Shown here one piece after another: positions 29,060 through 29,975 of a stretch of DNA of 64,000 nucleotides. Position 1 is the first letter of the stretch; the number at the start of each line of letters is the position of its first letter. Both the position numbers and the translations under genes were made by a program. The stretch is from Blasia pusilla. Taxonomy: Eukaryota. Location: assembly GCA_050084515.1 (NCBI GenBank), contig CM114271.1, positions 45,446,001 through 45,510,000 of the forward strand. Reading direction: 5' to 3'. The notes below the pieces were generated by a model. That model made no database searches. It was not told the DNA's origin and saw only the letters and a program-made list of their open reading frames with translations.

Positions 29060-29975
29060 TACCTAGGCTGACTATCCATGTAAGACAGTTGAAGTCCATC
29101 GTCTGCCCCAACACCTATCTCCGTGATGCCTCAGCCATACCTGGCACTGTCGTAGCACCCGTAGCAAAACCCATGGTGCGCTCGCGCTCATCTACTGTAG
29201 GCTCCTTCAATGCTCGGGTCACCTCATCCCAAATCTTGCCTGGCCCTCCCTAACGAAAGGCATGGGATGCTGGGAAGCTCACCAACGTAGGTAAGGCTGT
29301 CCTCAACTCCCCCACCCTATTGGCCATCACCAACTGTGGTCTATCATCCAGCGTCATCACCTAAGATCGAAGCCTTGAGCCCAAAATAGCATCCACTGTG
29401 AGATGTGGTGTTTTTTGGACTCCATCCTATGCTCGACTCAACACCTCTGATTGTATCAGGTTTGTCCAACTCTCGCTGCACCTAACAACACAGTAGGTCC
29501 AAACTTGGACCTCACCTGATGCACACTCGTCATCACACGTGCATGAGTGTCTCCCAACAATGACACGTTCTCCAAAATGTATGACGGAGAATATGTCTGA
29601 CTCTCCTGCAAGTGTCACATTACTTGCAACATCTCCCAAAACATCCCTGACCTCGGATCCTGCAATCCAAACCCTCAACCAACTAATGAATGACCCTGAC
29701 ATGGCCATGCAACAATCACCAAATGAATGGTGCCAACTCTATCCAGATCCTGCGCCCCCATCAAAGAGATGTCGACGGGTAGTGTATGTTGATACCCCCG
29801 TACTGCAGATACCGGCAACAACTTAGGATACCTCTGGACCAATCTCGCCACGTGACGTAATGATACTCGCCACGCGGTCTCATCTCTCTCCACATAAAGG
29901 TACTGATGCACCCATATGCACGCCTGCAATACCGCAGCTACTCCGGTGCTAATACCTCCGAAGAGATCTAACACC
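29060..29975 (-). pseudogene. DNMT3-like C5 cytosine methyltransferase domain embedded in Gypsy pol
   Basis: Motif I LDLFGGISTG; II YLYVERD; IV AWPCQGHS; GLQDPRSGMFWE; VI YILENV; WTNL; IX EPTVDERERTMGF; X RR*VLGQTMD. Motif VIII is deleted and several stops are present. Confidence 0.88.

Follow-up and report, generated by a model that had tools for sequence, protein, structure and literature searches.

A decayed DNMT3-like methyltransferase domain in a Ty3/gypsy retrotransposon fragment of Blasia pusilla, and its relatives in land plants

Retrotransposons carrying a cytosine methyltransferase of the DNMT3 type have been described in a small number of systems. The closest one is KnitGypsy-Dnmt3 from Klebsormidium nitens, a Gypsy element whose pol ORF includes a Dnmt3-type domain; its copies are few, and Ka/Ks is below 0.2 (de Mendoza et al. 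2018, PMC5890265). In yeast, this domain gave no de novo methylation, an outcome that its authors called inconclusive (PMC5890265). According to the same article, the only retrotransposon DNMT active in yeast was that of SymbioDIRS-Dnmt3 from Symbiodinium, which performs de novo CG methylation, and fusions of DNMT and reverse transcriptase (RT) are attributed there to Iyer et al. (2011). A 2026 preprint mentions 'streptophytes (Gypsy-DNMT3)', citing de Mendoza et al. (2018), whereas land plants lack such elements according to an opinion article of 2019 (PMC6338049).

Here we analyse one window, by which we mean the whole 64,000-nucleotide stretch of Blasia pusilla DNA taken from assembly GCA_050084515.1 (contig CM114271.1, positions 45,446,001 to 45,510,000); all coordinates below are positions in it. 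What this window holds is very probably a decayed DNMT3-type catalytic domain built into the gag-pol polyprotein of a Ty3/gypsy LTR family, an explanation that includes the proposed role of the domain. The domain order of the family is gag (CCHC), protease (PR), DNMT, RT, RNase H (RH), integrase (INT) and PHD finger. As in KnitGypsy-Dnmt3, in the description given in PMC5890265, a non-permuted DNMT3-type domain with its key catalytic residues kept lies in the pol ORF of an intronless Ty3/gypsy element of a streptophyte host. The host of KnitGypsy-Dnmt3 is a charophyte alga, whereas that of the window family belongs to the land plant lineage; copies in K. nitens are few according to PMC5890265, against 0.37% of reads for the window family, and the legend of Fig. 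4c in that article gives a DIRS-like arrangement of repeats; in relatives of the window family, one simple direct LTR pair was observed. No protein named as K. nitens was found among the matches of the methylase protein searches. SymbioDIRS-Dnmt3 shares with the window family a DNMT3-type domain in retrotransposon pol, but it has a DIRS backbone with a tyrosine recombinase and represents an independent capture according to the authors of PMC5890265. The Gypsy-DNMT3 kind itself is known, from a charophyte; that land plants have it, in large numbers and with transcripts, appears to be undescribed, as does the PR-DNMT-RT order combined with a PHD-tipped integrase. No report of DNMT-carrying retrotransposons in bryophytes was found in searches of openly accessible full texts; the supplementary DNMT trees of two articles (PMC5890265, PMC12344493) may already contain such sequences.

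The decayed copy in the window

The minus strand of positions 28917-29980 encodes a decayed, non-permuted C5 cytosine methyltransferase. In a three-frame translation of the minus strand of 28850-30520, one frame (29980-29456) reads LDLFGGISTG, YVERD, WPCQGHS, DPRSGMFWE and ILENV, and a second (29504-28938) continues with WTNL, ERERTMGF and RR*VLGQTMD. These are the eight motifs that the sequence-only reading had reported for 29060-29975, and all of them were recovered there, on the minus strand and in two frames; the place it had given for the domain was right, but the extent slightly too narrow, as the domain runs from ~29980 to ~28917. Motifs I, IV (PCQ), VI (ENV), VIII, IX, and X are all recognisable in the window, but not all intact, the damage consisting of eight stops in the aligned pieces, a frame switch, and the absence of ~25 bases in motif VIII. 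In intact relatives, the same motifs are intact and ordered.

Pfam searches with the four stop-free pieces of the domain matched the methylase model in none of them, the pieces alone being too short. When the N-terminal half was translated with its stops as X (P0001), it gave a significant match to PF00145 (DNA_methylase; E 3.9e-6, 26.9 bits, curated cut-off 22); the C-terminal half alone (P0002) gave no Pfam match. Six of the seven relatives scanned match PF00145 with E values from 2e-6 to 1.5e-13. Intact proteins of Marchantia, Calypogeia, and Sphagnum share 61-69% identity with the window methylase, and tblastn of intact relatives against the window covered both halves at 50-69% identity, with E values of 1e-108 to 1e-147 for the joined pieces, which, as a sequence match, is far beyond chance. 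Against PDB sequences, the window fragment as a single query found a DNMT2-type tRNA methylase as its best and weak match (E 0.012), the C-terminal half found chance-level matches only, and a search of the ESM Atlas returned generic methylase clusters only.

Relatives were collected through several searches. A word-indexed search of longer proteins with P0001 returned 16 matches, the best 13 of which show 63-71% identity over 89-98% of the query and include proteins of Calypogeia fissa, Marchantia polymorpha, and Sphagnum troendelagicum. The methylase part of the Marchantia protein P0005 retrieved 44 proteins, among them 16 that bear the name M. polymorpha and one each named C. fissa and Sphagnum fallax. 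When P0006, an intact relative, was used in an exhaustive phmmer search, 4268 cluster representatives matched at E<=1e-3; the number fell to 965 with a threshold of 1e-10 and to 269 with one of 1e-30. The persistence of the lineage in land plants, suggested from the window alone, is borne out by the Marchantia, Calypogeia, and Sphagnum proteins among these matches.

The element fragment is an internal part of ~4.9 kb on the minus strand (~25500-30436), without gag, the protease core, or either LTR. It opens with the end of the protease region and the PR-DNMT linker (29970-30436), which has no stop and to which residues 725-881 of P0020 and 238-365 of P0005, both from Marchantia, align by tblastn over 30434-29970. 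The N-terminal half of the DNMT follows (29444-29980; PF00145 E 3.9e-6), carrying motifs I (FGG), II, IV (PCQ) and VI (ENV) and the start of motif VIII, with three stops and 62-69% tblastn identity to P0003, P0004, P0005, P0013, and P0020. The C-terminal half lies in another frame (28917-29468) and includes WTNL, ERE.MGF, and LGQ.MD, with 50-54% tblastn identity and five stops, and is followed by the DNMT-RT linker (28470-28766), 64% identical to residues 691-789 of P0005. The reverse transcriptase occupies 27715-28548 (Pfam RVT_1 E 1.6e-9 at 28165-28566; tblastn identity 65% to P0027 and 45% to P0047; seven stops). RNase H and the N-terminal part of the integrase share the piece at 26529-27722 (RT_RNaseH E 2.5e-26 at 27015-27728; rve E 4.5e-6 at 26526-26762), which aligns with residues 827-1215 of P0047 at 45% and contains three stops, and the remaining integrase (25877-26584) aligns with residues 1197-1432 of the same protein at 46%, with five stops. 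Five relatives are colinear with the window piece by piece in tblastn, namely P0005, P0020, and P0027 from Marchantia, P0048 from Sphagnum fallax, and P0047, which is a single ORF of the order DNMT-RT-RH-INT. The PR-RT-RH-INT order, a Ty3-type RNase H, and an H2C2 integrase, all features of Ty3/gypsy pol, were found.

The C-terminal end of pol is a PHD finger at 25756-25914 (Pfam PHD E 7.1e-6, 26.4 bits, cut-off 24), which in tblastn (25863-25771) aligns with the PHD of P0049, P0050, P0052, and P0055. No chromodomain was found at the integrase C-terminus, where the PHD finger stands instead. Chromodomains steer integration in chromoviruses, which share with the window family a chromatin-reader module appended to the integrase, a chromodomain in their case and a PHD finger in the present one; similarly, the PHD finger might read a histone mark and steer integration. 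Beyond it lies a non-coding 3' tail (25500-25755) that still belongs to the repeat family, since genomic depth stays high to ~25500 and then falls to 17 or less, with no LTR after it. An inverted repeat with 74% identity between its arms (25077-25215 and 25501-25641) was also observed; one arm forms the last part of the 3' tail, the arms are linked to each other, on opposite strands, by a few genomic reads, and the structure may be the remnant of a second copy placed tail to tail.

In total, the aligned pieces of the copy contain 23 in-frame stops and at least six frame switches. The copy is truncated at 30436, within the protease region, where 689 genomic reads continue into sequence unlike the window and depth falls from ~900 to 0. 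At the joint 29465/6-29468, 127 reads carry ~28 extra letters, so the window copy lacks ~25 bases that are present in other copies, and this gap coincides with the frame switch at 29466-29468, in motif VIII. No LTR or other direct repeat flanking the copy was found within 18-40 kb, and self-BLAST of the window revealed no second copy; since the copy has no LTRs, its status as an element rests on homology. The stops, frame switches, and deletion in motif VIII imply that it can neither move nor methylate, and the earlier description of the copy as dead agrees with its truncation and missing LTRs as well.

Flanked by AT-rich, low-copy sequence, the fragment precedes a glutamate synthase gene of the same strand, lying ~2.6 kb upstream of its first exon. 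This multi-exon gene (GOGAT; 10000-22900, minus strand) has its GXGXG, Glu_synthase, and Glu_syn_central domains in separate ORFs and its N-terminal CGVGF amidotransferase start near 22300. Elsewhere in the window, an exon with a mitochondrial carrier repeat was found at 6010-6732 on the plus strand (Mito_carr, E 7.5e-22), and a tandem array with a period of ~92 bp lies at 38610-38926, with 2.5-4 copies 66-84% identical to the reference copy. Another mobile element may be represented by two long ORFs of 171 and 335 aa at 32647-34315 (minus strand), which have no Pfam match; the longer one is rich in proline and serine and includes a C2HC-like zinc-knuckle stretch. ORFs of 219 and 395 aa at 46403-48381 (plus strand), the first with a weak RVT_1 match below the cut-off (E 8e-4), probably belong to a different, non-LTR retroelement.

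Abundance, transcription and proposed role

About 1% of a raw genomic run of the source organism (X16) was mapped to positions 24000-32000 at a likeness of at least 85%, and 45,661 of the 12,434,590 sampled reads (0.37%) were placed there. The summed depth of 800-1400 over ~25335-30440, compared with 0-3.7 in nine clean flank bins, points to roughly a thousand copies; depth in the DNMT bins (840-1050x) is slightly below that in the RT bins (1150-1340x). Two RNA runs with the same species label gave 1144 of 10,132,408 and 1272 of 11,974,664 reads on the same interval, nearly all in one orientation (depth 5-38, against 0-2.4 on the other), which, given the usual stranded protocol, means that the element is transcribed in the sense direction. 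A likeness of at least 99% to the window copy is reached by only 5 and 1 of these reads, respectively, and nearly all are less than 95% like it, so the RNA stems from other copies; its depth is lower over the DNMT (1.6-6) than over RT-INT (15-38).

In intact copies, the domain would be made as part of Pol and would methylate cytosines. Its likeliest target may be the new cDNA of the element itself or the DNA of the integration site, as de Mendoza et al. (2018) proposed (PMC5890265), and this cDNA or self-methylation step is put forward here as a tentative though serious possibility. The sequence-only reading had cited de novo CG methylation, proposed for self-methylation of cDNA, for the DNMT retrotransposons of dinoflagellates and charophyte algae alike; it was shown for the dinoflagellate DIRS elements only, and the Klebsormidium Gypsy DNMT gave none in yeast (PMC5890265).

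The domain could also methylate DNA in a self-limiting or host-serving manner, marking new insertions for silencing and capping copy number rather than protecting the cDNA, and a benefit to the host was likewise raised by de Mendoza et al. (PMC5890265). Such a role would fit the excess of C-to-T and G-to-A changes in metagenome copies (1763 of 3336), the occurrence of T or A in the window where the genomic reads of the family (X16) have C or G at 277 of the 555 differing positions, and a CpG observed/expected ratio of 0.64 in the element vs 0.90 in the neighbouring host gene region. This bias is the pattern expected for deamination of methylated cytosines, though it is not specific to this element, as host methylation of any transposon by MET1, CMT, or DNMT3 yields the same decay; moreover, a family at 0.37% of the sampled genomic reads does not look self-limited. 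We therefore regard a self-limiting role as unlikely, and retain methylation of the element's own cDNA or of integration-site DNA as the preferred proposal.

Type and constraint of the domain

The catalytic domain of the family is DNMT3-like, without being a DNMT3 orthologue. A profile of six bryophyte-type sequences (A1), searched against PDB sequences, ranked DNMT3A (1.5e-10), DNMT3B (1.1e-8) and DNMT3C (3.6e-8) first, followed by tobacco DRM (3.6e-6, N-half only), a DNMT2-type protein (3e-4), and HaeIII (3e-3), with DNMT1 absent at E<=1. An AlphaFold2 model of the relative P0006, built with a 40-row alignment, reached a mean pLDDT of 90.4 and a pTM of 0.90, and among the Foldseek matches of this model listed for the PDB (to rank 49, some collapsed) only DNMT3A/B/C chains appear, the best being 6f57_D (E 1e-18, target TM 0.83). 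Both searches agree with the DNMT3-like style that had been noticed in the motifs. The domain is non-permuted, unlike that of DRM.

Canonical DNMT3 proteins have PWWP and/or ADD regulatory domains at their N-terminus. No such domains were found by Pfam in P0003-P0013, P0149, and P0050; the neighbours of the methylase are the protease upstream and RT downstream. Animal DNMT3A/3B/3C are the best profile and fold matches of the window family and share with it a short target-recognition region and the R.R..W.NL form of motif VIII, but their identity is only ~20-23%, and the window family differs in having no PWWP or ADD, in its LGQAMD motif X, and in being embedded in a retroelement polyprotein.

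Across 40 aligned proteins that are 31-77% identical to P0006, no variation occurs in G-W-P-C (motif IV), in E-N (motif VI), or at R225 and W228 (motif VIII). The triplets PCQ and ENV are each kept in 39 of them, P0049 being the exception, and TNL, ERE, and LGQ are almost invariant. A stop-free DNMT is present in only two of 80 metagenome loci (L006 and L069), and selection was estimated on such metagenome copies as pairwise Nei-Gojobori dN/dS, without the rows L058 and L059, whose nucleotide identity of 29% showed them to be out of register. The median dN/dS was 0.34 for RT (18 copies, 149 pairs), 0.47 for RH (30 copies, 427 pairs), 0.59 for DNMT (30 copies, 424 pairs), 0.70 for PR (16 copies, 107 pairs) and 1.02 for the zinc-knuckle part of gag (15 copies, 88 pairs), and DNMT differences were flat across codon positions. 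A value of 1.52 obtained for 'deep' pairs was discarded, all of those pairs having involved L058 or L059. At the level of sequence, the deep conservation of the motifs argues for function, and the selection signal among these mostly dead copies appears weak and diluted by neutral decay.

The element could keep the domain without methylating DNA, using it as an RNA (m5C) methyltransferase acting on its own RNA or primer, or as a structural pseudo-enzyme. The moderate departure of dN/dS below 1 leaves room for this, as do the DNMT2-type tRNA methylases found as the best single-sequence PDB matches of the window fragment (E 0.012) and the Klebsormidium domain, which gave no DNA methylation in yeast (PMC5890265). 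A pseudo-enzyme, however, would not need the catalytic cysteine in GWPC, the ENV, and the motif VIII arginines that are invariant or nearly so in the 40 proteins, and DNMT3A/B/C score far above DNMT2 in the profile and fold searches. We consider both variants very unlikely, and DNA remains the preferred substrate of the putative enzyme.

The place of the domain in the element and its two architectures

The arrangement of the window recurs in relatives that are far better preserved. The protein P0149 is one ORF of 2188 aa with zf-CCHC, Asp protease, DNA_methylase, RVT_1, RNase H, Integrase_H2C2, and rve domains, in which the aspartyl protease match is weak (E 2.8e-4, 22.0 bits, below the cut-off of 24.3). 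In P0149 and P0047, both single ORFs, the DNMT3-type domain thus lies inside the pol ORF without introns, and several Marchantia gene models have the same domain order and spacing as the window. In the 80 metagenome loci, the order GAG-PR-DNMT-RT-RH-INT recurs, the median gap being 358 nt between PR and DNMT and 586 nt between DNMT and RT. When only loci with enough flank were counted (at least 900 nt upstream and at least 1400 nt downstream), 30 of 37 showed PR, DNMT, and RT in this order; in the remaining seven, either a second element confuses the min/max rule (L016, L069, L079) or no PR match was found (L043, L044, L045, L049). LTR pairs were detected in five of the 16 long loci examined (L040, L041, L067, L069, L079), as direct repeats of ~340 bp that are 86-92% identical, lie 8.7-8.9 kb apart, and bracket the coding region, a distance indicating a full element of ~9 kb with ordinary LTRs.

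Since relatives share this order and spacing, the domain is an integral part of the element rather than a nested insert, as had been proposed from the window alone, and genomic reads show no drop in depth over it. Nested insertions and copies devoid of the segment, which the earlier reading had named as observations that would speak against it, were not seen, and no deletion junction removing the DNMT segment is present among the joints listed for the genomic reads, beyond which there were 18 more. An origin of the methylase piece as a pseudogene of host DNMT3, or as a separate insertion beside a Gypsy pol, is hardly credible. The fragmentary state of the window copy, its missing LTRs, and the frame changes at either border of the domain would fit such an origin, but the order and spacing hold in 30 of 37 loci of relatives, a 2188-aa ORF runs uninterrupted from CCHC to integrase, genomic depth is continuous across the segment, and the PWWP and ADD of host DNMT3 were not found in relatives by Pfam.

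The built-in domain occurs in two arrangements. We refer to the PR-DNMT-RT order of the window as type A, and to proteins with the methylase after RNase H and/or directly before the integrase as type B. Sorted by domain order, the 274 methylase-bearing proteins fetched comprise 68 with the window order (PR-DNMT and/or DNMT-RT), 140 of type B, and 66 with the methylase alone. Type B proteins have the order RT-RH-DNMT-INT, with a terminal PHD finger in P0050, and the window is not colinear with them. The type B Gypsy elements from metagenomes resemble the window family in having a homologous DNMT (31-36% identity to P0006) with the same motif set, a homologous RT-RH-INT, and a C-terminal PHD, but their methylase lies between RNase H and integrase rather than between protease and RT. 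The records P0049-P0135, from metagenomes and EukProt, form a very large type B Gypsy set with terminal PHD, with 63 matches in one search, all catalytic motifs being kept.

In a FastTree of 202 methylase domains, one branch with a support of 99 parts the two types, with 41 type A rows, the window, and 11 unclassified rows on one side and 128 type B and 21 unclassified rows on the other; the window falls in a clade of 12 rows (support 100) together with Marchantia and Calypogeia. The same split (SH-aLRT 99) was recovered by a quick IQ-TREE run on the window and a subset of these rows (21 of 41 for type A, 34 of 128 for type B), and an RT-RH tree with 4 type A and 82 type B rows, 86 in all, parts the types by one branch with a support of 100. 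Lacking an outgroup, these trees do not distinguish a single capture and a later move within pol from two captures from related donors. A broader scenario, which we consider fairly unlikely, traces a very large PHD-integrase Gypsy clade (269 clusters at E<=1e-30) back to a single ancient capture of a DNMT3 catalytic domain; this clade would have split into PR-DNMT-RT and RH-DNMT-INT lineages. The first would have colonised land plants and would still be transcribed, its copies numbering about a thousand in one bryophyte-like genome or more, and its enzyme would add de novo cytosine methylation independently of host DNMT3 and RdDM.

Some gene models derived from these transposons carry the UniRef name 'DNA (cytosine-5-)-methyltransferase' (P0019 and P0011, from Marchantia and Sphagnum records), and DNMT counts in bryophyte annotation may be inflated by transposon copies.

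Retrotransposons with their own cytosine methyltransferase invert the view of methylation as a weapon of the host, and the evidence for them has so far come from two algal groups. Land plants, among them the model liverwort Marchantia polymorpha with its 16 gene models, have Gypsy-DNMT3 elements that are abundant and transcribed, which qualifies the absence from land plants stated in the 2019 article (PMC6338049). Since M. polymorpha is transformable and methylation mutants exist, the question is experimentally tractable in this species. If a single ancient capture and an active enzyme were true, part of the methylomes of bryophytes would be written by a transposon.
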